Below the pieces are notes generated by a model that worked only from the letters and a program-made list of their open reading frames with translations, ran no database searches and was not told the origin of the DNA. This document shows, in pieces, positions 1,695 through 59,623 of a DNA stretch of 64,000 nt. The position numbers and the translations under genes are program-made. How positions within the stretch are numbered: the stretch's first letter is position 1; each line of letters begins with the position of its first letter. Origin of the DNA: Patescibacteria group bacterium. Lineage in GTDB: Bacteria > Patescibacteriota > Minisyncoccia > Phycocordibacterales > Phycocordibacteraceae. Where the stretch lies: contig JBBUDY010000019.1 of NCBI GenBank assembly GCA_038057055.1, positions 25,101-89,100 of the forward strand. Direction: 5' to 3'.

Positions 1695-2639
1695 ATGGAG
1701 ATGCATGATGCGTGGTTTTTCATCGGCGTATTTGTCTTCATATTCCTCATCTGGGTTTCGACTGGCGGTCCACTTCACCCGCTCGCGTTTACTGGTCCAC
1801 GACTTTCCCTGCCACAAGAACTTGGTGGCGGCACGTACCTGCAATTCCCTCGAGCATCGTTCACCATTGGTGATGGTTCTACATCTCTATCAGGCCCCTC
1901 AAGTGGTTCGAGAACTGATACTCCGGTTCCTACCTTTGTCGGTGGGAGCACATTTGGAACTCCATCTCCCTATCGCGGCATCGTCACAATGAGCCATTAC
2001 GTTTCGGGCGCCGGTTCTACCGACCCAAAGAATGAATATATCGAAATATCCGTCCCCCAGAACGTCAGTGTGCCTGTCGATCTTTCTGAATGGAGACTGA
2101 TGAGTGAGGCAAGTGGAAATTCAGTACCTATTCCAAAAGGAACAGAGACACCCTTTGCCGGTACGGTGAATGCGGCACAAGATATCGTGTTGTCACCTGG
2201 GATGAGAGCAATCATTGTATCGGGGTCATCGCCCATCGGCGCATCGTTTCGTGAGAACAAATGCATCGGATACTTCAGTACATTCCAAACTTTCTACCCA
2301 ACACTCCCCCAAAATTGTCCCGTGCCGTCTGACGAGCTTGCTGCTTTCTACGGTAGTGGTTACATCCGCGATCCATTTTGTATCGACTATGTAAATAAAC
2401 TCTCACGTTGCCAAGTGACACTTACACCTCCAGTTGGTGCTTCAGGCTCTTGTCAGAACTTCTTGGTGAAATATCTCAACTATAATGGCTGCGTCGACGC
2501 ACACAAAAATGATGCTGATTTTATGGGCAATACCTGGCGCATCTACCTCGGCCGTTCCTCTTCAATGTGGCGTACGAAGCACGAGCTCATAAAGCTGCTC
2601 GACGCGAACGGTAAAACGGTGGATGCGTTCAGCTACTAG
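1695..2639 (+). CDS. Membrane-anchored secreted protein with lamin-tail-domain-like segment and Cys-rich C-terminus
   Basis: N-terminal TM helix FFIGVFVFIFLIWV. NEYIEISVPQNVSVPVDLSEWRL resembles the LTD signature. Several Cys in the C-terminal third. Confidence 0.5.
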   Translation: MEMHDAWFFIGVFVFIFLIWVSTGGPLHPLAFTGPRLSLPQELGGGTYLQFPRASFTIGDGSTSLSGPSSGSRTDTPVPTFVGGSTFGTPSPYRGIVTMSHYVSGAGSTDPKNEYIEISVPQNVSVPVDLSEWRLMSEASGNSVPIPKGTETPFAGTVNAAQDIVLSPGMRAIIVSGSSPIGASFRENKCIGYFSTFQTFYPTLPQNCPVPSDELAAFYGSGYIRDPFCIDYVNKLSRCQVTLTPPVGASGSCQNFLVKYLNYNGCVDAHKNDADFMGNTWRIYLGRSSSMWRTKHELIKLLDANGKTVDAFSY

Positions 2640-2674
2640 AAGAAATGTGCTGTAAGTGGTAGAAATAGCAGTAT

Positions 2675-2747
2675 GCGCCCCTAGCTCAATTGGTAGAGCA
2701 ATTCCCTTTTAAGGAAGAGGTTCTGGGTCCGATTCCCAGGGGGCGCA
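2675..2747 (+). tRNA. tRNA-Lys (anticodon UUU)
   Basis: 73-nt cloverleaf. Acceptor GCGCCCC/GGGGCGC, D arm GCTC/GAGC, anticodon loop CTTTTAA, T arm CTGGG-TCCGATT-CCCAG, discriminator A. Confidence 0.93.
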
Positions 2748-2827
2748 CAAAATATTTTTGACACTTCCTGATCTTTGACCTATCATCCACTCGGGTAGTA
2801 AATCTATCAATCAAACAGGAGAAATCC

Positions 2828-3526
2828 ATGAACGTCAGAGGCATTCTGATGGATCTCGATGGAGTCCTTCTGGACTCCTTCCGAGAAGGACTGCGGCGTA
2901 TTCGTATATTATGCGTCCTTCACGACATTCGGTTTGAGCGGGATACACGGGCAAAACTCTTCAATAGCTGGGGCTTGCCCGGGGTGGAACTGCTCATCCA
3001 GTGTCTCGGCGTGAATGATGCGCTTGCGCGTCGTATGTACATTGAATGGGAGAAGCTCGATAGAGTAATTCCACCACCGCTCATTCCTGGTGCTCGCGAG
3101 GTACTCGTATGGCTTCGTCGGAATGGTTTCAGGACAGCTCTTATCACTTCGCGTCATCGTCCGAATTTACTCGAGGTTTTGGATCAACTTGATCTTGAGC
3201 GCGAATTCTTGGTCATAACGGCGAAGGAGGACGCGAGTCCGTACCACAAGCCAGACCCACGAGTCTTCCGATACGCCCTTGAGACTCTTGATACGAAATG
3301 CGGAGTCAAGAAGGATGAATGCATTTTTATCGGGGATACACCGAGTGATACGACCGCTGGACACGCTGCACAGATAGAAACGTTGGTCGTCCAGACAGGT
3401 CCATACTTGCTCGAGCATATGGTGCAATACCCGGTCCCCCTTTGGAATGTGCTTAAGTCGATCGATGACCTACCGTATTGGGTAGAGAAGCATCACGACG
3501 GAACGCTCAAAGAAACTTACGGTTAA
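2828..3526 (+). CDS. HAD-superfamily hydrolase (phosphatase-like)
   Basis: Motif I MDLDGVLLDS, motif IV IGDTPSD, SD-like GGAG upstream. Confidence 0.8.
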   Translation: MNVRGILMDLDGVLLDSFREGLRRIRILCVLHDIRFERDTRAKLFNSWGLPGVELLIQCLGVNDALARRMYIEWEKLDRVIPPPLIPGAREVLVWLRRNGFRTALITSRHRPNLLEVLDQLDLEREFLVITAKEDASPYHKPDPRVFRYALETLDTKCGVKKDECIFIGDTPSDTTAGHAAQIETLVVQTGPYLLEHMVQYPVPLWNVLKSIDDLPYWVEKHHDGTLKETYG

Positions 3527-4092: not shown

Positions 4093-4482
4093 TCATTCCC
4101 CCTTCATTCGGTGCTCTTTTTTTATCTTCCAGTAAATATCTTCAGACCCCGGATCAACATTTTTGTCCCGATTTTTGAACAAGTGCGCAGGATACTTTTG
4201 CTTCACTTTCTTAAGTTTATCTTTCAGAATCTTTTCCGTATCGAGATCTAACAAAACGCTCATATCGAAACAGTAATTCAATACGTCAGCAAGTTCTTTT
4301 TTAATCGCTTCGACCTTCTTCGCGTCTTTCTTAACCTCCTCAAGACTTTCATTCGTCCACTGGAAGATCTCAAGCAGTTCCGATGCCTCGATAGCAATGG
4401 ACTTCGCCACGTTTACTGGACGGAGCGTATCCCAGCCTCGCTCTTTTAAATATTTCCGGATGCGTTTCTCGTGCTCTTTCAT
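4093..4482 (-). CDS. MazG-like nucleotide pyrophosphohydrolase
   Basis: EASELLEIFQW and ELADVLNYCF helices typical of the MazG/dCTPase family. Start moved to internal ATG 4482 (MKEHEK) to remove the overlap with holA. Confidence 0.7.
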   Translation of the reverse strand: MKEHEKRIRKYLKERGWDTLRPVNVAKSIAIEASELLEIFQWTNESLEEVKKDAKKVEAIKKELADVLNYCFDMSVLLDLDTEKILKDKLKKVKQKYPAHLFKNRDKNVDPGSEDIYWKIKKEHRMKGE

Positions 4483-4499: not shown

Positions 4500-5192
4500 C
4501 TACAGAGATAAAGCCCAGCGCTCGAGAGACAACGCCAGGCCGAGACCTCCCCGACGGGAGTTTTGCAAAAGTTCGATGAGAGAAATCGATAGTTGCCGTG
4601 ATTCTTTCGGCGTCCACGCGTGACTCCCCTTCTCCATTAGGTCACGTGCCTTCCAGTGCAGAAGGCCATGGATCATTTCAGGCGCGTCGCCCGCATAGAG
4701 CGCGCGATTGATTTCAAGCCAAAGCTTTTCTCGACTTCGTGCAGAAAGTGCATTTACTAAGTTGCCATTGAAGCCGTGCTTGTCCTCAAACGTAGCTGGT
4801 TTATCGTAGGTGTATGTCAGCTTCGCTTTCGCCGCAATCTTTTTTACTTTCGCCGCAGTAAGTTTGGGCGCGAGAATGATAATTGCATTATCGGATGTGG
4901 CGAGAGCGTCCAGATGTTCTTCAAGAATACTTCCTCCATTTTCTTCTTTTTCATCACTTTCTTCCTCACGTATCGAACGTGTGGCCGAAAAAGGATCGTC
5001 GATAAGTATCAGAAGCCGCTTTACGAAAAGTCCGCCTGAAAGCGAGGCGTCTTCAAGAACCGCGTTCGTGAGCTCCTCGCGTGCAAGACGTATATACGCG
5101 AGATTCGGCTCCTTCGTGCGCGCTTTCGCCACCCATTCAAACGCTTTACTGCGCGTCTTCTCAACATCAGAGCCGTAGAAAAGGTAGATCAT
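4500..5192 (-). CDS. holA: DNA polymerase III delta subunit-like (HolA)
   Basis: N-terminus MIYLFYGSD and the size fit HolA. ATG 5192 overlaps the polA stop (ATGA). Confidence 0.6.
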   Translation of the reverse strand: MIYLFYGSDVEKTRSKAFEWVAKARTKEPNLAYIRLAREELTNAVLEDASLSGGLFVKRLLILIDDPFSATRSIREEESDEKEENGGSILEEHLDALATSDNAIIILAPKLTAAKVKKIAAKAKLTYTYDKPATFEDKHGFNGNLVNALSARSREKLWLEINRALYAGDAPEMIHGLLHWKARDLMEKGSHAWTPKESRQLSISLIELLQNSRRGGLGLALSLERWALSL

Positions 5193-7567
5193 AGTAGCTT
5201 CATCGTACCCCAATCGGGTCCAGACTTCATCGTTGCAATAATCGGCACACCACGGGTCTCTTTAGTTGGCAAGACAGACTCCATAATGTTTTTTATTTTC
5301 GCACCCAACATCCCAACACGCTCATTGCGAATTTCATACACAAGCTCGTCATGCACTTGTAGGAAGAGATATGCATCAGTCTGTGCTTCTTCTTTCTTCA
5401 GCATGTCATCGACACGCACCATGGCGAGCTTGATGATATCCGCCTGCGTTCCTTGGATTGGTGCATTGATAGCCATGCGCTCGGCTTGTGCACGGACGTA
5501 TGGGAGTGATGATTTCATCTCAGGAAATTGGCGGCGGCGACCGAAGAGCGTCTCGGTGTAGCCGTGCTTACGCGCGAAGCCGCGTGTGCTCTCAAGATAT
5601 TCTGAAAGAATCTTGAATGTGCTGAAATAGTCGTCAAGAAATTGATGTGCTTCGGCGGTGGTGCTCCCCAATTGTGCGCGCAGTGCATTCACTCCCATAC
5701 CGTAGAGGATGCCGAAATTAATGACCTTCGCACGACGACGCATCTCTGCATCAACTTTCTCTGGCTCAACACGAAAGACCTGTGCTGCAACTTCTTGGTG
5801 CACATCACGACCGCTTTTGAAGATATCGCAGAGTTTTTTGTCGCCCGAGAGAATAGCGGCAATACGCAATTCTATTTGAGAATAGTCGAGCGCGAGGAGC
5901 GTAAAGCCTTTTGAAGCAACAAAAGCATGGCGTATCGCCCTTCCACGTTCCGAACGTAGCGGAATGTTCTGAAGGTTCGGATTCTGGCTCGCCATGCGCC
6001 CCGTTACCGCACCCGTCTGGAGAAATTCAGCATGGAGACGATTCTCGCTATCAAGCATCGGCGGGAGGTTTTCAATATAGGTTCCGAGAAGCTTCTTCAA
6101 CTCGCGATATTCGAGGATATCATTCACAATCGGGTGCGCGTCGCGAATCTTCTCCAACTCGCTCTCACGCGTCGAGCGCTGCCCTCCCGCCGTTTTCTTC
6201 TGTCGTTCGGGAATTATCTTCAGCTCATCAAAAAGGATTTCACCGAGTTGTTTCGGAGAACTCACGTTGAACTCGCGTCCCGCCGTTCTATAGATACGTT
6301 TCTCTATCTTTTCAAGTTCTATCCGATACTCTTTCGCAAGAGATGTAAGAACGGCGGGATCAATAAGAACACCGTGCTCACTCATCCGACGTACAATCGA
6401 GATGAGCGGTTTCTCAATCTGTTCATACACTTCTTTTACTCTTTCTGATTCAACGAGTTGTTTCTCGAGCACACGGTATGCAAGATCAAAAGTTCGTTCC
6501 TTGGCAAAAGCGAGAATGTCATCAAGGGATGGGTTTGTAAATTCAGATGAAATGAGCCAGAGCATGACTTGTGCCTCGGCGAGACGCACAGAATCTACTA
6601 TTTCTTCGGGAGCAGTTTCAAAGAGTCCTTCAGTTTCTGATTTGCTTTCAAAGAGTGTCTTAATCCTTTCTTTAAGCGTTCTGAATCCGAACTCATTGCA
6701 CATTTCGAGCATTTTTTGTACTTCGATGTTCTCGTTCCATACTCGCTCGGGGAGAGTAAACGCAATCGGTGCGTCAAGACGTATAGTCGCGAGCGACTTC
6801 GAGAAACGCGCATCCTCTTCGTGCTCTCTTAAGAGAGCTATCATGCGCGCTTTGATTCCTTTTTTCAGAAATGCTGTATCGCCTTTTTTAAGCGCTGTAT
6901 ATATTTTCTCGATAGAGCCGAAACCCGTGATGAGTTCAGTTGCTGTTTTTTCTCCAATGCCAGGGACGCCCTTGATGTTGTCGGAAGGGTCACCACGAAG
7001 CCCCTTCCAGTCTGGAATAAGCGCAGGGAGAAACCCGAATCGCTCCACCACGGCCTTCTCATCGTAGAGAATTGTGTCGTTAATGCCCTTCTTCAACGTA
7101 TAGACGCGTACACGTTCATCATCGACAAGCTGGAGTGTATCCATGTCGCCCGAGGCGATGATGATGTCAACACCTTTCTCTTCCTTCATCTCGTGTGCGA
7201 TGGTGCCGAGCAAATCATCAGCCTCGAATCCTTCTCGCGAATACATCGGAATCGAGAATGCTTCAAAGACTTTATGCGATTCTCCAAGTTGGAGTGCCAG
7301 CGCGTCATCGGTTTTTACCCGTGTCCCCTTATAATCAGCATACGCTTCATGACGAATGGTCGGCTTCGGCAGATCGTAGCACGCGGCAATGTAATCCGGC
7401 TTGAGGTCCGTAATAATTTTAAGCAGCATCGCGACGAGCCCATAGAGTGCGCCCGTCGGTGTCCCAGTAGGCCCCGTAAAATCTGGCAGTGCATGATACG
7501 CGCGATGAATAATCGCATGGGTGTCCAAGAGTACAACTCTCTTTTTTGTCGAAACTTTTTTAGCCAT
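5189..7567 (-). CDS. polA: DNA polymerase I (5'-3' exonuclease plus polymerase domains)
   Basis: 5' nuclease motifs (LLDTHAIIHRAYHA, GDPSDNIKGVPGIGEKTA). Polymerase motifs DYSQIELR, RRRAKVINFGILYG, QVHDELV. Confidence 0.95.
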   Translation of the reverse strand: MAKKVSTKKRVVLLDTHAIIHRAYHALPDFTGPTGTPTGALYGLVAMLLKIITDLKPDYIAACYDLPKPTIRHEAYADYKGTRVKTDDALALQLGESHKVFEAFSIPMYSREGFEADDLLGTIAHEMKEEKGVDIIIASGDMDTLQLVDDERVRVYTLKKGINDTILYDEKAVVERFGFLPALIPDWKGLRGDPSDNIKGVPGIGEKTATELITGFGSIEKIYTALKKGDTAFLKKGIKARMIALLREHEEDARFSKSLATIRLDAPIAFTLPERVWNENIEVQKMLEMCNEFGFRTLKERIKTLFESKSETEGLFETAPEEIVDSVRLAEAQVMLWLISSEFTNPSLDDILAFAKERTFDLAYRVLEKQLVESERVKEVYEQIEKPLISIVRRMSEHGVLIDPAVLTSLAKEYRIELEKIEKRIYRTAGREFNVSSPKQLGEILFDELKIIPERQKKTAGGQRSTRESELEKIRDAHPIVNDILEYRELKKLLGTYIENLPPMLDSENRLHAEFLQTGAVTGRMASQNPNLQNIPLRSERGRAIRHAFVASKGFTLLALDYSQIELRIAAILSGDKKLCDIFKSGRDVHQEVAAQVFRVEPEKVDAEMRRRAKVINFGILYGMGVNALRAQLGSTTAEAHQFLDDYFSTFKILSEYLESTRGFARKHGYTETLFGRRRQFPEMKSSLPYVRAQAERMAINAPIQGTQADIIKLAMVRVDDMLKKEEAQTDAYLFLQVHDELVYEIRNERVGMLGAKIKNIMESVLPTKETRGVPIIATMKSGPDWGTMKLL

Positions 7568-8059: not shown

Positions 8060-8449
8060 TTACCACCGGCGATAACCGCCACGATTGTACCCGTGACTAT
8101 GACCACCGCGATAGATACTCTGGATGATCGCTACTCCGACCACCCCGGCCACCACCCCCCATCCAAAACTGGGGTTGTAGGTGTAGGCCACCGCCTGTGA
8201 TGCACAGACGACCTGCCCATAGTACACCGCGGGATACGTCCCATACGGACACGGCGCGGGTACGTAGACAACCGCTGGTGCCACAGACGCCGGTGCGGAC
8301 GGTGTTCCGCCCGCCGCCTGCGGATAAGCCGGCGCCTGATTCGACAGCACTGGCGCCGGATAGTAATACACCTGCGCCGGATCAATCGCACAGCCGCCGG
8401 CGAACAAGACAAAAATTGAAATGAAAAGAGCAGAAAATTTAGTTTTCAT
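8060..8449 (-). CDS. Small lipoprotein with Pro/Tyr/Ala-rich region and glycine-zipper C-terminus
   Basis: Signal peptide plus lipobox LFAGGC. GWGVVAGVVGVAII glycine-zipper-like segment. Confidence 0.6.
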   Translation of the reverse strand: MKTKFSALFISIFVLFAGGCAIDPAQVYYYPAPVLSNQAPAYPQAAGGTPSAPASVAPAVVYVPAPCPYGTYPAVYYGQVVCASQAVAYTYNPSFGWGVVAGVVGVAIIQSIYRGGHSHGYNRGGYRRW

Positions 8450-51637: not shown

Positions 51638-52273
51638 ATGAACAAATATACACAGCCCTTTAGCCAGCACCAAAACAGCTTTGGTGCTAGGCAAAACTCG
51701 ATGCTTGTTCCGATGGTGATTGAAAAGAGTCAGTTTGGCGAGCGCGCCTACGACATCTACTCGCGCCTCCTGAAGGAGCGCATCGTCTTTCTCGGCGGCC
51801 CTATCGACGACGATGTCGCAAATCTTGTCATCGCGCAACTTCTCTTTCTTGAAGCAGAAGATCCGAAAAAAGATATTTCGCTCTATATCAACTCGCCGGG
51901 CGGCTCGGTGACTGCCACGCTCGCAATGGTCGACACGATGAATCATGTGAAGCCGAATGTCTCAACGGTCTGTGTGGGCATGGCGGCCTCTGGTGCAGCG
52001 ATACTCCTCTCTGCTGGGCAGAAGGGCAAGCGCTATGCGCTCCCGAATGCTGAAGTGATGATTCACCAGCCGCACGGCGGCGCCGAGGGTCAAGCAACTG
52101 ATATTGAAATTACCGCAAAGCAAATCATCAAGCTCCGCGCGGTACTCAACCGCATTCTTGCAAAAAATACCGGTCAATCACTTGCGAAGATTGAGAAAGA
52201 TGTCGAGCGCGACTTCTTCATGACCGCCGACGAAGCGAAAAAGTACGGGCTGGTTGATAAGGTGTTTAATTAA
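51638..52273 (+). CDS. clpP: ATP-dependent Clp protease proteolytic subunit
   Basis: [20 protein letters not shown], catalytic [11 protein letters not shown] and MIHQP. Confidence 0.95.
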
Positions 52274-52291
52274 ATAGACTCAATATGAGGG

Positions 52292-52324
52292 AAACGCGCC
52301 GGCTTCGCCGGCGCGTTTTGTTTG
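52292..52324 (+). terminator. Rho-independent terminator after clpP
   Basis: GC stem CGCGCCGGC/GCCGGCGCG followed by TTTTGTTTG. Confidence 0.8.
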
Positions 52325-52447
52325 TGGTAGAGTCCCCTCATACCGTCCCACCGATTGACTGATTCGAAAGCACGACCGATCATCTTCTTACTTTGTACTT
52401 AATCCGTCCGTTATCTGGCGGCCGGAATCTTTGGAACCCGAAGTTAT

Positions 52448-53977
52448 ATGTCACTCAAAATCATATTGCTCATGCTTGCGCTCTCGGGCGTCGGCGGAGT
52501 TGTGCTTGGGTATGTGCTACGTGTCCTTATTGGTCTCGCTCAGCGTGGCTCCATCGAGCTTGAGATTAAGCAAAAAATGCTCCAGGCCAAGGAGCAGGCG
52601 GCGAAGATTATCACGGATGCCGAATTCCGCAGTGCAGTCGTCGAGACCGAGCGTCTTGCGCCAGTCGAGGAACGTGAGGAGAAGATAAGTACACGGGAGG
52701 AACGCCTCGCCTTGCGCGAGGAATTTCTCGATTCACGCCAACGTGATGTAGATGAAAAAGAAGTTGAGGTGCGCTCGCGGGAGCAAGCTGCGGTGCATGC
52801 AAAAAATGAAGCGGAAAAATTGACTGCACAGCGTTCCAAAGAACTTGCGAAAGTCGCACACCTCTCCGAAGATAAAGCGCGTGAAGAACTTTTTTCTGAA
52901 ATTGAGCATGCTCATGAGGACGCGATACTTCTGCGTCTCCAGAAACTTGCCGCGAATGGTCGTGAACGCCTTGAGGACAAGGCGCGCGATATCCTCACCA
53001 CCACCATTCACCGACTCGGGAATGCCGTGAACGCCGAGGTAATGTCGCTCTCGGTTGTGCTCCCCTCCAACGAGACAAAAGGAAAGATTATCGGCAAAGA
53101 GGGTCGCAATATAAAGGCGTTTGAGCGCGCGACCGGCGTGGACGTGCTCATCGACGACGTGCCCGATCGCATCACTCTCTCCTCGTTTGACCCGCTCCGT
53201 CGTGCAATCGCGAAAATCGCGCTTGAGAAGCTTATCGTCGACGGCCGCATCCAGCCCGCAAAGATAGAAGAAACGGTCGAGAAGACACGTGCAGAAGTTG
53301 CTGAAATTGTGAAGCAGAAGGGTGAGGCCGCGGCATATGAGGCGGGGGTAATCGGGCTTGATCCCAAGCTCACTGCCCTTCTCGGCCGCCTTCACTTCCG
53401 TACGAGCTTCGGCCAGAACGTACTCACTCATTCTATTGAGATGGCGCACCTCGCCGGTATGCTCGCGACCGAGCTCGGCGCAGACGCGACCATCGCGCGC
53501 ACTGCCGCTCTTCTGCACGACATCGGCAAAGCAGTTGACCACGAGGTGCAAGGAACGCATGTAGAGATTGGTCGCCGCATCCTTGAGAAATTTGGCGTCA
53601 ACAATCGCGTCATCCTCGCGATGCAGTCGCACCACGACGAGCACCCGTACGAAACGCCGGAGGCAGTCATTGTGCAGGTGGCAGATGCTATCTCGGGCGG
53701 TCGCCCGGGCGCCCGCCGCGATACCGTGGACCGCTATCTTGAGCGCCTCGGCGACCTCGAGCGCCTCGCCACTACCTTCCCCGGCGTTGAGAAGGTCTAC
53801 GCCATCGCGGCAGGTCGCGAGATACGTATCTTCGTGAACCCCGGCAAGGTCACCGACCTCGCGATGCACAAGCTCGCGCGCGACATCGCGAAGCGCATTC
53901 AAGAAGAGCTCAAATACCCGGGCGAGATTAAAGTGAATATAATCAGAGAAAACAGAGTTGTAGAATTTGCCCGGTAA
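52448..53977 (+). CDS. rny: Ribonuclease Y
   Basis: N-terminal TM, coiled coil, KH (GKIIGKEGRNIKAFE), HD domain (LLHDIGKA...HH). Confidence 0.95.
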   Translation: MSLKIILLMLALSGVGGVVLGYVLRVLIGLAQRGSIELEIKQKMLQAKEQAAKIITDAEFRSAVVETERLAPVEEREEKISTREERLALREEFLDSRQRDVDEKEVEVRSREQAAVHAKNEAEKLTAQRSKELAKVAHLSEDKAREELFSEIEHAHEDAILLRLQKLAANGRERLEDKARDILTTTIHRLGNAVNAEVMSLSVVLPSNETKGKIIGKEGRNIKAFERATGVDVLIDDVPDRITLSSFDPLRRAIAKIALEKLIVDGRIQPAKIEETVEKTRAEVAEIVKQKGEAAAYEAGVIGLDPKLTALLGRLHFRTSFGQNVLTHSIEMAHLAGMLATELGADATIARTAALLHDIGKAVDHEVQGTHVEIGRRILEKFGVNNRVILAMQSHHDEHPYETPEAVIVQVADAISGGRPGARRDTVDRYLERLGDLERLATTFPGVEKVYAIAAGREIRIFVNPGKVTDLAMHKLARDIAKRIQEELKYPGEIKVNIIRENRVVEFAR

Positions 53978-53980
53978 CCA

Positions 53981-54271
53981 TTATTCAGCCTCTTGCATAT
54001 ATTCAGTCACGATAGTGATTACTTTTTGAATTGTTGCATTACAGTTTTTGAAGCTTATGAGCGAGAGGATTTCATTTCCGTGGATTCGGAATAATTCACT
54101 TATGAGAGCGTGTATGAACGACTGCGTCGCACCGCTTACTCCAGAGAAGTCTATTGTTACTTTTTTACCTTTAGAAACTCTCGGGGTTAACATTTTTATA
54201 CGGATATCTCTGGCGATATCCTTATTTTCAGCAAAATCGCCTATGAGTGGTTTAAGATGAATGATTGTCAT
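53981..54271 (-). CDS. STAS-like (DUF4325-type) small protein
   Basis: 96 aa. KVTIDFSGVSGATQSFIHALISELF matches the STAS-like pattern (hxxDFxGVxxxxxSFxxE). Overlaps the ATPase gene stop by 4 nt. Confidence 0.6.
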   Translation of the reverse strand: MTIIHLKPLIGDFAENKDIARDIRIKMLTPRVSKGKKVTIDFSGVSGATQSFIHALISELFRIHGNEILSLISFKNCNATIQKVITIVTEYMQEAE

Positions 54272-55266
54272 ACAAAAATTGGTTTCTTGTAACGCGCATG
54301 TTTGCGCGCTCGAACAGCTTTCGCATATACATTTCGTATATGTTCCAAGAGTGCAGTAAATTGCTCATTTACGTCAAGCGCGAGGTCGATTCCAATGACA
54401 GTTCCTTGCCAGTGCGGGTAGTCGTTCCCGGCGGAATGCCTATCTTCAAGAGGATCGGCCTGAAGCGGATTTTTGTTCTCGGTTTTTTGTTTCAATAGTT
54501 TATAAAAAGCTGTACCACTATAGATAACAAAGAAGTCACTATTAACCGCAGCGATCGATTTCACGAAAAAAAGTCCAGCCCCAGCATTCTGCTCGGTGCC
54601 GCCCTCACGGTCCGTAGTTCCAGTTATTCCCGGAGTTAATGCAAGACGAATTGACTGAAGATCGTCTGTCGAGTGATGAGATTTCCTGATAGTTCTACTG
54701 ATACCGACTCCTACGTCACTGATTCCTATACGGACAGTATTGCTTTTCGAATAGTATTGGGCGGCAACGAATGCCCCGCGAGAAGAATCAGCGTGTTCCA
54801 ATACGTTTCGAACAAGCTCACTCACGATATATTTAAGAGGTTCTGCATGAATTGGTGCGAGATGAAGGAGAGGAATCATTTCTGTAATGAAACGCGTTAA
54901 GGAAGTAGAGTCTTTTATCTGAGTAAGGGGAATGAAACGTCCACTCGAATCGTGTTCAGTCATGATGATTCCTGAGTCAATCTCCAAAAACTCAAACAAT
55001 CGCATCCGTTCGAAATAATGACGCGATTTCGCTTCAAGTGCTTCGCAATCAATTTTCTCTCTCGGCACTGTTTGTCCTAGAGCTGCGATCATAGTGAGCA
55101 CAATTGGATGTACGGAAATCCATTTCTTGTTTGCGGTTATGAGAAGTTCTTTTGGATTACTCGGATCAAATCTCCGTAAAAATGAATCGAGATTTCCTAA
55201 GAAAGCGCTATTGGGGAGATTTATCCTCATACGGCTTATATTACCGGGAATTATAGATTTATGCAA
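54268..55266 (-). CDS. GHKL-superfamily ATPase (anti-sigma/Ser-kinase-like) with unknown N-terminal domain
   Basis: N box SELVRNVLEHA, G1 ISDVGVGI, G2 GAGLFFVKS. TTG start in the track is uncertain (alternative ATG 55230). Confidence 0.6.
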   Translation of the reverse strand: MHKSIIPGNISRMRINLPNSAFLGNLDSFLRRFDPSNPKELLITANKKWISVHPIVLTMIAALGQTVPREKIDCEALEAKSRHYFERMRLFEFLEIDSGIIMTEHDSSGRFIPLTQIKDSTSLTRFITEMIPLLHLAPIHAEPLKYIVSELVRNVLEHADSSRGAFVAAQYYSKSNTVRIGISDVGVGISRTIRKSHHSTDDLQSIRLALTPGITGTTDREGGTEQNAGAGLFFVKSIAAVNSDFFVIYSGTAFYKLLKQKTENKNPLQADPLEDRHSAGNDYPHWQGTVIGIDLALDVNEQFTALLEHIRNVYAKAVRARKHARYKKPIFV

Positions 55267-55292
55267 TTCCCGGTAGTGTGTGGTACTATGTA

Positions 55293-55361
55293 TTGAAGTG
55301 TCCGGGTGAAATCAAGGTCAACATCATCCGCGAAAACCGCGTGGTTGAATTTGCCCGCTAA
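55293..55361. repeat. rny 3'-terminus repeat (orphan; LKCPGEIKVNIIRENRVVEFAR*)
   Basis: 55302-55361 encodes the same 19 aa plus stop as 53918-53977, with 14 nt differences, all synonymous. Confidence 0.95.
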
Positions 55362-55408
55362 CTTTATAAGATTTCTATAACTTGCATAACTTTATAAAGT
55401 TTGGTAGT

Positions 55409-56350
55409 ATGGGTTTTATGACCATACGGCAGAAATTAGAAATTATCCAGAAGATGCTGGGACTAACCCAGACGAAGCTCGCCGCGAAGTTCGGCGTATC
55501 TTTTGCCGCCTTCAACAGTTGGTGGACTGATAAATCCACACCGCGGTCAAAGATGCAGACCGCTATAAATGAGCTTTTTTTGGAAGTGACGGGGCAAAAA
55601 ATAATTCCTGCCGACCAGCTCACCGCAAAGAAGCAGGTGTTACAACAAAGGTCGAAAGCACACAGAAGCCTCATTAATAGAATTCTGGATAATCCAGATA
55701 TTCGGGATCAATTTATTCTTAAGCTTACCTACCACAGCAATCGCATCGAGGGGAGTACGCTCTCCGAACCTGATACTGCTGCGGTTCTTTTTGACAACGT
55801 TGCACTGCCAAACAAAAGTTTGACCGAACAACTGGAAGCAAAGAACCACCAAACCGCTTTGAATTATCTGTTTGATCACGTTGCAAAAAAAGAAAAAATT
55901 AACGAAGCATTGGTACTAAAACTTCACAGTATCCTCATGAACGGTATTCGTTCGGACGCCGGCACATACCGCAATCATGCAGTGAGAATCATCGGCGTTC
56001 ATTTGCCGACGGCGAATTATATGAGCATTCATACATTGATGCCAAAAGTAATGGCTTGCGCCGTCAGAAAGACGAAAGATATTGTCGCGCTATCCGCTAG
56101 TGTCCATAGCAGATTTGAACAGGTGCACCCTTTCTCTGATGGCAATGGCCGTGTCGGTCGTCTACTTATGAATGCAATGCTTCTTAATGCAAATTTTGCT
56201 CCAGCGATAATTCGCCAAGAGAATAAACAACTGTATTATACATATCTCTATAAAGCGCAGATTAAAGAAGACCAAAGCCAGTTAGAGGATTTCTTTTGTG
56301 AAGCGGTCATAGACGGCTTCAAAATTCTGGAACGGACGGACACACGTTAG
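55409..56350 (+). CDS. Fic-domain protein with N-terminal XRE-type HTH
   Basis: HTH LGLTQTKLAAKFGVSFAAFNSWW. Fic motif HPFSDGNGRVGR. Confidence 0.88.
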   Translation: MGFMTIRQKLEIIQKMLGLTQTKLAAKFGVSFAAFNSWWTDKSTPRSKMQTAINELFLEVTGQKIIPADQLTAKKQVLQQRSKAHRSLINRILDNPDIRDQFILKLTYHSNRIEGSTLSEPDTAAVLFDNVALPNKSLTEQLEAKNHQTALNYLFDHVAKKEKINEALVLKLHSILMNGIRSDAGTYRNHAVRIIGVHLPTANYMSIHTLMPKVMACAVRKTKDIVALSASVHSRFEQVHPFSDGNGRVGRLLMNAMLLNANFAPAIIRQENKQLYYTYLYKAQIKEDQSQLEDFFCEAVIDGFKILERTDTR

Positions 56351-56404
56351 TCGCCACACAAGTCGGGCTGTCTCTCAAAGATTTTCTGAAGCTGTAAGAG
56401 TAAT

Positions 56405-56429
56405 AAAAACCCGGCGCGTACGCGCCGGG
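56405..56429 (-). terminator. Rho-independent terminator (minus-strand operon end; possibly bidirectional)
   Basis: Stem CCCGGCGCG/CGCGCCGGG with a U-tract on the minus strand. Confidence 0.8.
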
Positions 56430-56445
56430 GCCCCAAGAGTCGAGG

Positions 56446-56583
56446 CTATTCCACTCGTGCCGACCTGCGGACTTGCAGGTCATGTGCCCGGATCTCCGTC
56501 CGCGCGGCCCGTTTCACAGGCAGTGGGCGCACTCGTGGCGGGTCCTTCTCCCGCTTTTTCTGCGGGACATTTGTGGCTACCAT
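56446..56583 (-). CDS. 45-aa Arg/Pro/Lys-rich peptide co-transcribed with the radical SAM gene
   Basis: MVATNVPQKKREKDPPRVRPLPVKRAARTEIRAHDLQVRRSARVE. SD GGAGG 8 nt upstream of the ATG, 25 nt after the rSAM stop, terminator right after. Confidence 0.5.
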   Translation of the reverse strand: MVATNVPQKKREKDPPRVRPLPVKRAARTEIRAHDLQVRRSARVE

Positions 56584-56608
56584 TACTCTCACCTCCTTTC
56601 TCTTGCAG

Positions 56609-58342
56609 TTAGACTTCTTTGAGAATAAGTTGATCGAGATCTTCGAGATACTCCCCCACCTTGATGTTGAAGCCGAGCGAGGGGAATGGTTCCGTCGGCT
56701 GCGGATAGTAGTACCAGCGTTCCGGCTGTGTTGAAGCGACGATACCGAGCCATCCGGCGGATTCAATGCGTTCTCCTGCCAGCCCACTTTCAAGCGTAGC
56801 CACGAGCTCTGTAACCACAGCTCTCGCATCCGGCTCGGACAGTCCAAGCACGAGTGGCAACTTCTGTTCTGTTTCGACAATCGTGTAACCGACCCGAAGG
56901 AATCCAAGCGCCATTCGTTGCGACAACTCCAAGCCCGTAGAATCAGCCTGTGCCGCAAGGAGCCAGATTCTGAAACCAGATCCCATAAGTCTTGATTGCA
57001 GATCCGTGTCCCCGCCCTCTCGGTCAACACTTGTGGAAGGAAACGCGATGTTGGTGACCAACCAACCCAGCATCGACGCGTCGGTGTCGAGCCCTATACG
57101 GCGAGCGTCGACCTCGACATCCCACTCCCGAAAATCTATCTCGCCTCTCCCGGCATTGACCATTGCGTTATACAGCGGTCGAAGCATGGAGGACTGAAGG
57201 ATAAACGGGAGGTTCTTTTGCTGCTGCTCGGATAAGAACCGAGCGGTTGCGACGTCGTGAGAGTTCGGGAAATGCATGAGCAACAGACGCGCGTTAATGC
57301 CGGCTTCTCCGAGCACTTGCACTGCGTTCTTGCTTGCGCTTGATACGGCGCGTTTCTGCACTGCATCGAGCACCTCCTGGTCCATTGTCTCCACGCCGAT
57401 TGACAGCGTGTGGCAACCGGCCACCGTAAGACGCGGCGCAATTTCCCTCGTTACGTGGTCACAACGTGTGATCCCCCACCACCCAAACTCCGGATGACGA
57501 GATTTGACTCCCGCAAGCAGTTCCAGAAGCACCGCGGTCTTTTTCTTATGCAACCCGAGAGTCGAGTCGATGAGGTAGTTATTAGTGACGCCGTGCCGGA
57601 GCAGAAACTCCGCCTCATCTGCGACTGTACGTGGCTCGCGATACCGCACACCGACAAGCTCACCGCGGATGGCACAGTAGGTACAGCCATACGGACATCC
57701 CCGCATCATCTCGAGGAGCCCCATCGGCTGTAGGCCGAGGTAACGGTACTTCTGCACGTAGCTCGCGAAGTCAAACGTGCCATTGACCGTGTACAACGCT
57801 TCCGCGCTGTACCCGTCAAGCATTTCGCGCTGTGTGCTCCCGACGACTCCTTCTCTGGTGCACATGCCGGGGACGTCCCGTTTGCCGGAGTCGAGTGCAG
57901 AAAGTAGCTGGGGTATCTCAACGCCGTCGCCAGCATAGAAGATATCTGCGGTGATCTGTTCGAGCGCATTTCCCCGAACGAGATTCATCGCCCCACCACC
58001 AACCACAATCGGTACCGAAGAGATCTTTCGTATCGACTTGGCGACATGCCGGACGATATTCCCTTGTGCCACCGTTGGCCAAATAAGGAACACTGCCGTG
58101 TGTGTGCCGCCGAGACGCCGTGCGACCGCCTCTTCAACCGCTCGCTCGGGATTTTCAGGATTGCTGAAGGCCACGAGGTTGCAATCAAGAAGCTCTACAC
58201 TGACTCCGGCGACGATGAGCCGGTACGCAACTTCGAACAAAACTCGAGGAACCATCAGTCCTTCGAGTGACCCCGGCCCCGACAACTTTCTGACATCCGC
58301 ATAGCTAGATGTATTGCACGCCAGGACGCATAAGATTCGCAT
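56609..58342 (-). CDS. B12-binding-domain radical SAM enzyme with long C-terminal extension
   Basis: CxxxCxxC cluster MRGCPYGCTYCAI. N-terminal Rossmann-like B12-type region. SD AAGGAG 6 nt before ATG 58342. Confidence 0.8.
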   Translation of the reverse strand: MRILCVLACNTSSYADVRKLSGPGSLEGLMVPRVLFEVAYRLIVAGVSVELLDCNLVAFSNPENPERAVEEAVARRLGGTHTAVFLIWPTVAQGNIVRHVAKSIRKISSVPIVVGGGAMNLVRGNALEQITADIFYAGDGVEIPQLLSALDSGKRDVPGMCTREGVVGSTQREMLDGYSAEALYTVNGTFDFASYVQKYRYLGLQPMGLLEMMRGCPYGCTYCAIRGELVGVRYREPRTVADEAEFLLRHGVTNNYLIDSTLGLHKKKTAVLLELLAGVKSRHPEFGWWGITRCDHVTREIAPRLTVAGCHTLSIGVETMDQEVLDAVQKRAVSSASKNAVQVLGEAGINARLLLMHFPNSHDVATARFLSEQQQKNLPFILQSSMLRPLYNAMVNAGRGEIDFREWDVEVDARRIGLDTDASMLGWLVTNIAFPSTSVDREGGDTDLQSRLMGSGFRIWLLAAQADSTGLELSQRMALGFLRVGYTIVETEQKLPLVLGLSEPDARAVVTELVATLESGLAGERIESAGWLGIVASTQPERWYYYPQPTEPFPSLGFNIKVGEYLEDLDQLILKEV

Positions 58343-58502
58343 GATCATCTCCTTAGTTTTGAAAAGGTCTTCCAACAGCATTAGGCATCTTTTACGAAGG
58401 ACAGTCAAAAATATCTTACATAAACGGAAAGATATCTCTATTATGTTGCGTATTCAGTAACTTTATGTAATATAGAAGTTGTAAGAGATTTACGACAATT
58501 TC

Positions 58503-59234
58503 ATGGAGATAAAAGATGTCCTAGCGCAGTTTAGCCTTACCGAGAAAGAGTCCTCGATCTATCTTGCTGCGCTTGAGTTGGGTACTACGACCGCGGCGGC
58601 TATTGCAAAAAAGGCCGGAATCCAGCGCACGCACTTCTACGATATATCCGAAAGTCTTATTACTGCAGGCTTTTTGCAACGAGTTTCTAAAGAGAACAGA
58701 CGACTCTACTCTGCTGCTGATCCCGAAACGCTTATTGAAATTGAGGAAAAGAAAATTGAAAAACTGAAGAAGACTCTTCCCGAGTTTAAGGCGCTCTACA
58801 ACACCTCCGGCAAGAAGCCGAAGATAACCTACTATGAAGGGCGAAGTGGCATCGAACAAATTAACGACGATACGTTACGGTATAAAGGCGAATCGGTCGC
58901 ATTCACAACTCCTCGGTTCGTCTCCTTCCCGAGTAGGAGTACGGGGAAAGCATATATCGAGAAGCGTGTTGCTATGGGTAATCATGTGCGCGTGATTGGA
59001 GAGGACGCTCCAGAGATTCGCGAACTACAGGGGAAAGATGAAGAAGAACTAAGAGAGACAAGGATATTATCTAAGGACATATTTCGTTCGGAAATAGAAA
59101 TTGGCATGTATGGAAGCAAGGTTTTCATTATTGATTACAAGGAGCAATTTGGATTCATCATTGAGGACACAGAAATTGCCCGCGTTATGAAGATGATTTT
59201 CGAGATTGTCTGGGGCCGATGGGAGAAATCGTAG
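58503..59234 (+). CDS. TrmB-like transcriptional regulator
   Basis: wHTH LTEKESSIYLAALELGTTTAAAIAKKAGIQRTHFYDISESL. Divergent from the rSAM operon. Confidence 0.7.
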   Translation: MEIKDVLAQFSLTEKESSIYLAALELGTTTAAAIAKKAGIQRTHFYDISESLITAGFLQRVSKENRRLYSAADPETLIEIEEKKIEKLKKTLPEFKALYNTSGKKPKITYYEGRSGIEQINDDTLRYKGESVAFTTPRFVSFPSRSTGKAYIEKRVAMGNHVRVIGEDAPEIRELQGKDEEELRETRILSKDIFRSEIEIGMYGSKVFIIDYKEQFGFIIEDTEIARVMKMIFEIVWGRWEKS

Positions 59235-59350
59235 TGATTTCGCGTTATCCACGTGAGGTTGGCAAGGGTATTGCGTAATATGGCGCATTTCCTATACTTC
59301 TTTGCAACCCGCCCTCTGTAGGCTGCGGGATTAGCAGCTAGCAGATATTT

Positions 59351-59623
59351 ATGAACAAAGCAGATATCGTAGACAAGGTACATGGCGTTCTCGGCACCAC
59401 CAAGGCCGACGCCGAGCGCGCTGTCGAGACGGTCATTAACTCTATCGTTTCCAGCCTCAAGGGTGGGGACGAAGTGTCGGTTGCCGGTCTCGGCATCTTC
59501 GCGACGAAGGCGCGCCCAGCGCGCCAGGGCAGGAATCCCCGCACCGGCGAGACGATTCACATCAACGCTTCTCGCACCGCGAAGTTCCGCGCCGCGAAGG
59601 CGCTGAAGGACGCGGTGAAATAA
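59351..59623 (+). CDS. hup: DNA-binding protein HU
   Basis: MNKADIVDKV...GRNPRTGETIHI arm motif. Confidence 0.95.
   Translation: MNKADIVDKVHGVLGTTKADAERAVETVINSIVSSLKGGDEVSVAGLGIFATKARPARQGRNPRTGETIHINASRTAKFRAAKALKDAVK

Follow-up and report, generated by a model that had tools for sequence, protein, structure and literature searches.

We analysed a 64,000-nucleotide stretch of a Patescibacteria group bacterium, a Kaiserbacteria-like organism from groundwater (assembly GCA_038057055.1, contig JBBUDY010000019.1, positions 25,101 to 89,100), hereafter called the window, with a focus on the end of its rny gene (52448-53977). This gene encodes RNase Y, regarded as an essential housekeeping protein. 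The last residues of the protein, PGEIKVNIIRENRVVEFAR, are encoded twice, at positions 53918-53977 (tail A) and 55302-55361 (tail B), and both copies terminate with TAA. The 1.3 kb between the two tails hold a cassette of two minus-strand genes, one for a STAS-like DUF4325 protein and the other for a GHKL ATPase (the HATPase-STAS cassette). Tail B is followed by three further accessory genes and then by hup, which encodes HU (Table 1). RNase Y is full length, with 509 amino acids as in 80 orthologues, and ends in tail A, the functional copy; tail B is stranded. An exact-protein look-up of the RNase Y of the window returned no record.

The two tails are 77% identical at the nucleotide level over a repeat of 60-69 nt, with 23% of the nucleotides diverged, and the longest run shared by both (11 nt) lies at the extreme 3' end. 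A preliminary description of this DNA, made from the letters alone, had reported an unchanged peptide with synonymous differences, and the comparison of sequences and codons agrees with it: there are 14 mismatches, which change 12 of the 19 sense codons, and all 14 are synonymous. The exchanges (tail A/tail B) include AGA/CGC (twice), ATA/ATC, AAT/AAC and GTA/GTT. Only 23% of the single-nucleotide changes in the tail stretch are synonymous, and the peptide was kept in none of 300,000 simulations of 14 random substitutions (chance <3e-6). In a six-frame scan, the tail pair was the sole peptide repeat of at least 11 residues in the 64 kb. Similarity had also been proposed for the 9 nt immediately upstream, which encode LKY at tail A and LKC at tail B and share four of nine nucleotides. 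Since the stranded copies found in relatives begin with LKY, MKY or FKY, this weak extension represents real homology. Divergence under coding constraint in both copies points to two functional rny genes as their source, rather than to the drift of a local duplicate.

We considered tail B as the end of a translated open reading frame (ORF) and rejected it, as its frame lacks a start codon and is closed by a stop 18 codons upstream. In one relative, L082, an in-frame antisense ORF of 88 amino acids looks fortuitous. The GC-rich version of the tail (GC-type) can form a terminator-like hairpin followed by a T-rich run (window 55328-55354; CCGCGAAAACCGCGTGG TTGAATTT), which synonymous changes abolish in the AT-rich version (AT-type) represented by tail A. 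The hairpin potential of the tail spans 35 nt and is weak.

Table 1. Features of the rny-hup region of the window (positions of the 64,000-nucleotide stretch).
Feature	Position	Strand	Basis or remarks
rny (RNase Y) body, codons 1-490	52448-53917	+	Pfam RNase_Y_N, KH_1, HD; GC-rich; mosaic tracts relative to L081
Tail A, last 19 codons and TAA of rny, AT-type (ATA, AGA)	53918-53977	+	
STAS-like DUF4325 gene, 96 aa	53981-54271	-	Pfam PF14213, E=6e-14; convergent with rny
GHKL/HATPase_c gene	54268-55266	-	Pfam HATPase_c
Palindrome TACCGGGAATT-N12-AATTCCCGGTA over the cassette promoter	55242-55275	.	Read from sequence
Tail B (LKC and PGEIKVNIIRENRVVEFAR, stop), GC-type, stranded	55293-55361	+	Outside any long ORF
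Tail-B-linked module (CTTTATAA...AGTTTGG)	55362-55404	+	Common to L026 and L081; right edge of the block shared with L081
HTH-Fic gene, first of slot 2	55409-56350	+	Pfam Fic; PADLOC PDC-S04 and SoFic
B12-binding radical SAM gene, slot 2	56609-58408	-	Pfam Radical_SAM; NCBIfam B12-rSAM families
TrmB-like regulator gene, last inserted	58503-59234	+	NCBIfam TrmBL1, E=2e-13; 79% nt match in L082
Native rny stop (TGA) and conserved rny-hup spacer (TGATTTCGCGTTATCCACG...GGCGCATTTCCTATACTT)	59235-59350	+	
hup (HU), ancestral downstream neighbour of rny	59351-59623	+	tblastn synteny

The composition of the locus changes abruptly at about 53910, where the GC content drops from 0.59-0.62 to 0.39-0.46. 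Tail A has G or C at the third position of 8 of its 19 codons, compared with a third-position GC content (GC3) of 0.80 across the 100 codons before it (p=3e-4). AGA accounts for two of its three arginine codons, while AGA and AGG make up 0 of 42 arginine codons in the rny body and 8 of 25 in the cassette genes. These values support the proposal that the proximal copy is compositionally foreign to rny and has the codon usage of the cassette. The distal copy had been described as rny-like, and this also holds: tail B has the codon usage of rny and differs from the GC-type consensus of the family at seven positions, all of them third codon positions. The two tails are not equally similar to their orthologues. 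In nine of the 11 closest genomes, tail B is the better match to the resident tail (50-53 of 60 nt, against 43-50 for tail A), and the two exceptions carry AT-type tails themselves. Tail A groups with the AT-type tails of L036 (52/60), L021 and L025 (51/60).

To place the two tails in context, 80 rny loci were fetched from Kaiserbacteria and Paceibacterota assemblies, with one genome per species. The tail peptide is near-invariant across the 80 genomes, and complete amino acid identity between a donor and a recipient copy is therefore expected. AT-type functional tails, which share the core AAAGTAAATATAATYAGAGAAAAYAGAGT, are present in 10 of the 80 genomes. A stranded tail lies downstream in six of these 10 loci and in two of the 70 others (Fisher p=2e-5, with some events shared by descent). 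AT-type tails accompany other cargo, or almost none, in L016, L021, L022, L025, L029 and L036; the AT-type tail recurs as an allele associated with insertions in general rather than with one cassette. Hybrid tails, with a GC-type 5' side and an AT-type 3' side, were found in L017 and L005.

The distribution of the AT-type core bears on the possibility that no foreign donor was involved, the tail having been duplicated when the cassette inserted and the functional copy recoded later, under AT-biased mutation or because selection disfavoured deletions between the repeats. Such a course would require about 12 synonymous changes within 19 codons, including two double steps from CGC to AGA, next to 100 codons that hold a GC3 of 0.80 and a gene body without a single AGR codon. 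Furthermore, the core AAAGTAAATATAATYAGAGAAAAYAGAGT is common to species whose rny bodies match in codon at only about half of the identical residues, which indicates a spreading allele. The near-identical gene-end repeats of other loci, described below (46/48 nt in L037, 45/47 in L135, perfect in L126 and L085), may nevertheless represent the starting state of this process, and since a cassette between identical repeats is deleted, diverged pairs would be enriched by survivorship. The terminator-like hairpin of the GC-type tail, missing from the AT-type tail, would also fit. On balance, we regard local duplication as quite improbable.

The ancestral gene order in the relatives is ppa-clpP-rny-hup. 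Synteny of hup after rny was detected by tblastn in 75 of the 80 loci, usually across a gap of 98-190 nt. In unoccupied loci, the tail is directly followed by TGATTTCRCGYTATCCACG...GGCGCATTTCCTATACTT, the conserved upstream region of hup. In the window, the hup upstream sequence begins at 59235, directly after the stop of the TrmB-like gene, which adjoins the native rny stop (junction ...AAATCGTAG / TGATTTCGCG). As the native spacer starts only there, the whole of 53978-59234 (5.26 kb) is inserted. The Fic gene, previously taken as the neighbour of rny, is hence part of the insert: the order in relatives is rny-hup, and hup lies at 59351 in the window. Tail B splits the insert into two slots, the first with the STAS-like and GHKL ATPase genes and the second with the Fic, radical SAM and TrmB-like genes. 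With three inserted genes between it and the native spacer, tail B is more aptly called the previous resident end than a native end still in its original position.

On its right side, the island has an edge that is constant down to the single nucleotide. Many independent insertions end exactly at TGATTTCGC, including those in L010, L022, L026, L036, L046, L049, L079 and L081. No neutral spacer separates rny from the hup control region. Insertions can last only where they fall at the stop codon itself or, provided that they bring a substitute tail, within the tail. TrmB-like genes of two very different kinds (243-254 and 270-274 amino acids, about 25% identical) stop on or directly before the same TGA (L036:11516-11521, L022:12324-12329, L010:5182-5187, L026:4265-4270, L081, reverse strand, at about 8391-8396, and window 59232-59237). 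Our literature search on hot spots in Patescibacteria found nothing relevant.

Stranded rny tails were found in about 10 relatives, with lengths from 0 to 34 codons and a maximum of three per locus. Those of 0 codons correspond to the right edge in the window and L081. A remnant of seven codons (VVEFAR and the stop) is present in L016, L021, L022 and L025, and in L025 it is contiguous with the native spacer. Stranded tails of about 16 codons occur in L026 and L036, those of 21-24 codons in the window, L082 and copies 2 and 3 of L009, and one of 34 codons is copy 4, the last, of L009. Of the units between which the three stranded tails of L009 lie, one is an MNT-like cassette, another a HicAB cassette, and the third a block with a TrmB-like gene at its end. 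L054 has a degenerate stranded copy. Displaced units thus start with a piece of the anchor gene in the window (tail B), in L009 (three times) and in L016, L021, L022, L025, L026 and L036.

Relative to the GC-type consensus, 32 of the 35 differences in stranded tails lie at third codon positions, whereas the 25 nt of non-coding sequence beside them have diverged freely between the window, L082 and L083. This bias indicates that the stranded tails are young, being either recently displaced or recently overwritten by recombination with functional ends. In an identity matrix, drawn up with concerted evolution between the tails of one genome in mind, GC-type tails were alike at 49-53 of 57 positions, whether paralogous or orthologous. 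Tail B and about 45 nt after it are common to L026, despite a different cassette upstream, and also to L081. Conversely, the junction 5' of the stranded tail is common to the window, L081, L082, L083, L054 and copy 2 of L009, and the sequence downstream differs. Both linkage patterns, the module shared with L026 and the shared upstream junction, agree with a role of stranded tails as homology arms for a cassette entering a new background.

Imperfect hairpin inserts (TGCCCCGTAG...GGGG, 34-44 nt) interrupt the stranded tails of several loci (L025:9510-9561, L022:9531-9582, L016:4956-5000, L036:9550-9585 and, in a longer nested version, L021:9495-9640). The insertion point is AACCGCG^TGGT in four loci and a different one in L036. 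Rfam has no family matching the inserts of these five loci; either a miniature mobile element or the footprint of a recombination is conceivable.

When metagenomes were scanned with the ATPase protein, 80 HATPase-STAS loci were retrieved, and in three of them the cassette lies at the end of rny with a stranded tail: L081, from a Hainich groundwater assembly (ATPase 100% identical), L082 (90%) and L083 (88%). In addition, the GTDB genome L017 carries a cassette copy that is 57-65% identical, and the GTDB genome L054 a deletion remnant. The STAS stop is 0-3 nt from the rny stop in all five loci (3 nt in the window). The functional tail beside the cassette is GC-type in L082, L083 and L054 and hybrid in L017, indicating that an AT-type tail is not an obligatory part of the cassette. 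The other 77 HATPase-STAS loci, in other contexts, showed no rny tail in the scan, and the cassette therefore does not carry the tail everywhere. The preliminary description had proposed that the cassette arrived with its own surrogate rny end from a diverged donor and displaced the native end downstream. Part of this stands, in that the functional end looks foreign and an earlier end was displaced, a pattern that recurs in relatives. The cassette, however, is not a self-contained tail carrier, the AT-type tail is not bound to it, and no donor lineage was identified.

The order tail-cassette-tail in L081, L082 and L083 comes from three independent assemblies of different projects, each with its own sequence variants, and the structure is thus not an assembly artefact. 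A chimera of two strains, one with and one without the cassette, might be suspected because the source is evidently a metagenome-assembled genome and because the mosaic with L081, described next, demonstrates strain mixtures. Apart from the three assemblies, remnants are also present in the GTDB genomes L054 and L017, and a 77%-identical repeat is not a product of a de Bruijn assembler. We consider a chimera extremely unlikely.

The comparison with L081 revealed a recombination mosaic. From 53726 to 55369, the window and L081 differ by a single mismatch in 1644 nt. This block starts 190 nt before the end of the rny body, runs through both tails and the cassette between them, and ends 8 nt past tail B. 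Within rny, including 52900-53725, tracts of about 0% divergence alternate with tracts that are 18-20% divergent. Such alternation between two genomes that are almost identical in the rest of this region indicates that rny has frequently imported homologous DNA from relatives at species-level distance. The second slot differs: the window has the Fic, radical SAM and a 243-amino-acid TrmB-like gene, while L081 has two small minus-strand genes and a 274-amino-acid TrmB-like gene, and lacks the Fic gene. Homology resumes at 59229, with the TGA and the spacer. The mosaic thus implies crossovers in rny, at tail B and in the spacer, and the crossover at tail B means that this tail splits the island into two independently exchanged slots. 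L081 (reverse strand, 2619-3055) also contains about 430 nt more than the window (52273-52325) between clpP and rny, a spacer that forms a second variable point beside the island.

The extent of the shared block is relevant to a further scenario, a self-propagating minicircle. Recombination between the two tails would loop out the cassette together with one tail, and the circle, once taken up by a relative, would integrate by a Campbell-type single crossover in the rny tail, restoring tail-cassette-tail with one donor and one native tail. With no additional assumptions, this scheme would account for pairs of donor and native tails, hybrid tails, a constant upstream junction for each cassette family, stacks and the lack of a recombinase, and it is compatible with all the observations behind the explanation that we favour below. 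The block shared with L081, however, reaches 190 nt into the rny body, which a linear double crossover fits better than a circle with 69 nt of rny, and natural transformation brings in linear single strands. We therefore rate the minicircle as unlikely.

We then compared the locus with the known classes of mobile elements. According to Pfam, none of the cassette or island genes encodes a recombinase. Recombinases were also searched for among the ORFs of the window and 160 loci by motif scans and by jackhmmer with one seed family (Xer-like), serine recombinases being covered by a simple motif only. No tyrosine recombinase, and hence no IntI, was detected by these searches in the 64-kb window, and none in any rny cassette. 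The scan matched a housekeeping Xer-like gene about 7 kb downstream of rny in relatives and, in a single case (L157), a tyrosine recombinase gene directly after the STAS gene; the other 79 of the 80 HATPase-STAS cassette loci had no recombinase. There are no terminal inverted repeats joining 53978 and 55292. As with integrases, the end of the target gene is duplicated and the gene restored, but an identical crossover core at a fixed position is missing, as the stranded tails start 0, 7, about 16, 21-24 or 34 codons from the stop. The attC hairpins of integrons (RYYYAAC ... GTTRRRY, 55-140 nt) are also missing, the ends of the cassette being a stop codon on one side and the promoter palindrome with the coding tail on the other. 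Nor does the repeat resemble the target-site duplication of a transposon or a miniature inverted-repeat transposable element (MITE), since it measures 60-69 nt, is only 77% identical and varies in length by locus. The variation in stranded-tail length is compatible with homology-facilitated illegitimate recombination.

The main rival to the explanation developed below is integration at a specific site by a trans-acting recombinase whose gene lies elsewhere, such as an integrase, Xer or an integron-like enzyme, with the rny tail as an att site that cassettes mimic so that rny is restored. Direct repeats around recombinase-less cassettes and the tandem stacks of L009 are what such a mechanism would leave, and five stranded tails have the same LKY/PGE start, with about 40 nt upstream in common. 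Other HATPase-STAS cassettes are flanked by perfect repeats of 25-43 nt, such as that of L126 next to tRNA-Glu, in three copies. The L157 recombinase after the STAS gene and the Xer-like gene downstream of rny also speak for it. These points have to be set against stranded tails of 0-34 codons without a common crossover point, a longest identical run of 11 nt that lies at the far 3' end of the two tails, and repeats at other targets that share no sequence. Moreover, no recombinase was found in the window or in 79 of the 80 cassette loci, no viral contig bearing the rny tail was retrieved with a degenerate DNA pattern, and the mosaic with L081 shows homologous recombination at work in the same region. 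Taken together, these data make a trans-acting site-specific enzyme rather unlikely.

As no recombinase, terminal inverted repeats, common core or fixed stranded length was found, we favour, with moderate confidence, recombinational displacement at an insertion hot spot, in which a single illegitimate join is followed by homologous spread. Incoming DNA carrying an rny end with genes behind it would be joined homologously within rny and illegitimately at its far end; the equivalent integration of a circle would be an alternative way of entry. Each type of junction would arise once, through homology-facilitated illegitimate recombination. The replacement end, tail A, would come from another functional rny copy, with the codon usage of an AT-rich accessory gene pool, and the previous end, tail B, would be pushed 1.4 kb downstream, still joined to what followed it. 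Spread among relatives would then take place by ordinary homologous recombination, presumably of the RecA type, with the rny body and tail, the stranded tail and the hup spacer as arms, and no element-encoded recombinase would be needed.

Several points weigh against recombinational displacement. We found no donor genome that combines an AT-type tail with an AT-rich rny body, and the AT-poor rny genes of the set use CGT and CGA rather than AGA. The break between GC-rich and AT-type sequence falls near the same codon in several species, which would also fit a defined site. Five stranded tails begin at one LKY/PGE position, although a single ancestral junction may account for this. In model bacteria, arms of 60-70 nt with 80-90% identity are poor RecA substrates. 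The GC-type functional tails of L082 and L083, beside the same cassette, call for secondary conversion or a different donor. Finally, given that the search relied on a Xer-like seed and simple motifs, the involvement of a serine recombinase, or of a novel enzyme with its gene elsewhere in the genome, is possible.

Duplicated gene ends are not restricted to rny. In L037, the last 16 clpP codons are present twice (4586-4633 and 5786-5833, 46 of 48 nt identical). The 1.2-kb insert between the copies holds a RelB/RelE-like pair together with a 136-amino-acid gene, and the native clpP-rny spacer follows directly on the distal copy. Among the HATPase-STAS cassettes, that of L135 is flanked by 47 nt of the 3' end of a YgjP-like gene (1630-1676/3064-3110, 45 of 47 identical, both differences synonymous), and that of L133 by the first 15 codons of a GT4 glycosyltransferase gene (2269-2312/3687-3730). 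The cassette of L085 is flanked by the first 24 codons of a membrane protein gene in a perfect repeat (2262-2345/3694-3765). In L126, a perfect 43-nt repeat abutting tRNA-Glu occurs in three copies (4845-4887/6261-6303/10534-10576). Where these flanking repeats differ at all, the coding differences are mostly synonymous.

A broader and more tentative idea, which we consider possible rather than probable, is that these small-genome and probably naturally competent bacteria use conserved coding ends of essential genes as transportable homology arms. The host's own homologous recombination would then suffice to insert, stack and exchange small accessory cassettes, like an integron without integrase, and the recoded AT-type tail, which would prevent the self-deletion of stacks, would travel with the cassettes. 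The rny and clpP tails would be examples and, elsewhere, the YgjP-like 3' end and the 5' ends of the glycosyltransferase and membrane protein genes.

The closest parallel is found at Rhs, CdiA and type VI secretion system (T6SS) effector loci, where orphan 3' tips are stacked downstream. Homology-facilitated illegitimate recombination was put forward as their origin and homologous recombination as their means of spread (PMC5361080, which, where it deals with rhs, cites Jackson et al. 2009). As in those arrays, a conserved stretch of the upstream gene anchors the incoming DNA at the rny locus, and the resident end is pushed downstream with a short conserved piece; stacks form by successive events, homologous transfer takes place from strain to strain, and no dedicated recombinase is known (PMC5361080). 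The rny locus differs in what is displaced. At Rhs, CdiA and T6SS loci, this is a toxin tip that varies, together with its immunity gene, and the diversity of ends is the point; at rny, the anchor is a housekeeping RNase, the protein end is invariant, with synonymous differences only, and cargo unrelated to rny sits beyond the stop. Since the protein encoded by the end of rny has to remain unchanged, the event left its record at synonymous sites only. PMC5361080 also draws a parallel with integrons. The rny locus resembles integron arrays in that small, often promoter-bearing toxin-antitoxin or defence cassettes are stacked beside a fixed gene with a recurring separator. It differs from them in that IntI is lacking, the separator is a coding tail instead of an attC hairpin, and the boundaries are not a GTTRRRY core.

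Integrative elements that restore a gene end include SCCmec at the 3' end of rlmH/orfX, islands in the 3' ends of tRNA and tmRNA genes, and SXT at the 5' end of prfC. In the SCCmec group, composite islands and SCC-like cassettes without ccr exist. The rny locus has in common with these elements direct repeats of the target end, an element-borne end that keeps the gene intact, tandem stacks and recombinase-less members. The SCCmec-type elements, however, possess a site-specific recombinase and a fixed core, whereas at rny none was found, the lengths vary and the repeat is 23% diverged. Hot-spot islands swapped between core genes are also known, as in capsule, O-antigen and defence islands. Variable accessory genes between the core genes rny and hup, mosaic flanks and swaps of whole-island alleles are features of the same kind; unlike those islands, the rny locus contains an internal non-functional core-gene end that provides an extra homology arm and two slots.

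In candidate-phyla-radiation bacteria, genomes are tiny and mobile elements that can be recognised are few, so that the ways in which accessory and defence-like genes are acquired are little understood. The rny locus offers a concrete route: a spacer-less hot spot where the last 20 codons of a housekeeping gene are repeatedly replaced and stranded, the stranded copies serving in turn as arms for recombination inside the island. If general, this route would explain recombinase-less cassettes with gene-end repeats in several lineages. A gene end that is identical in peptide yet synonymously diverged could serve as a signature of recent gene gain in annotation. It also calls for caution, as an essential gene can contain a few dozen foreign codons.

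The remaining features concern the content of the two slots. The longest ORF of the ATPase gene starts from a TTG at 55266, but an ATG at 55230 (MRINLP...) is the likelier start, and the protein has a weak SpoIIAB-like match in NCBIfam. PADLOC assigned the STAS/ATPase pair to no known defence system, the sole match being a partial DrmA profile on the ATPase domain. Literature on DUF4325 is essentially absent, with incidental mentions only. The palindrome of the cassette overlaps the -35 and -10 boxes of the ATPase promoter and is kept in L054, L081, L082 and L083, and in L133 as TACCGGGATTCCCGGTA; variants were also seen upstream of the ATPase gene in the distant cassette members L086, L126 and L133. 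Homology between copy 2 of L009 and the cassette begins within the palindrome spacer. As the palindrome overlaps the promoter boxes and is kept in every cassette context, we rejected it as a recombination site; judging from its sequence and position, it is probably an operator for a regulator.

The module after tail B holds a 28-nt internal duplication bounded by CTTTATAA, which has a long form in L026 and a short form in L081. Together with the downstream TTGCAT-17 nt-TAGTAT, it resembles the promoter of the Fic gene. The Fic protein is similar to mobile mystery protein B in NCBIfam and has an N-terminal repressor-like helix-turn-helix (HTH) domain. Two other loci showed rearrangements of their own. 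L026 contains a perfect 93-nt tandem duplication in the conserved hup upstream spacer (4297-4482). In L042 (1124-4680 and 10463-11404), there are several copies, some tandem and partial, of an insertion sequence with an rve-type transposase, and the rny-hup island of that genome contains a related transposase gene.

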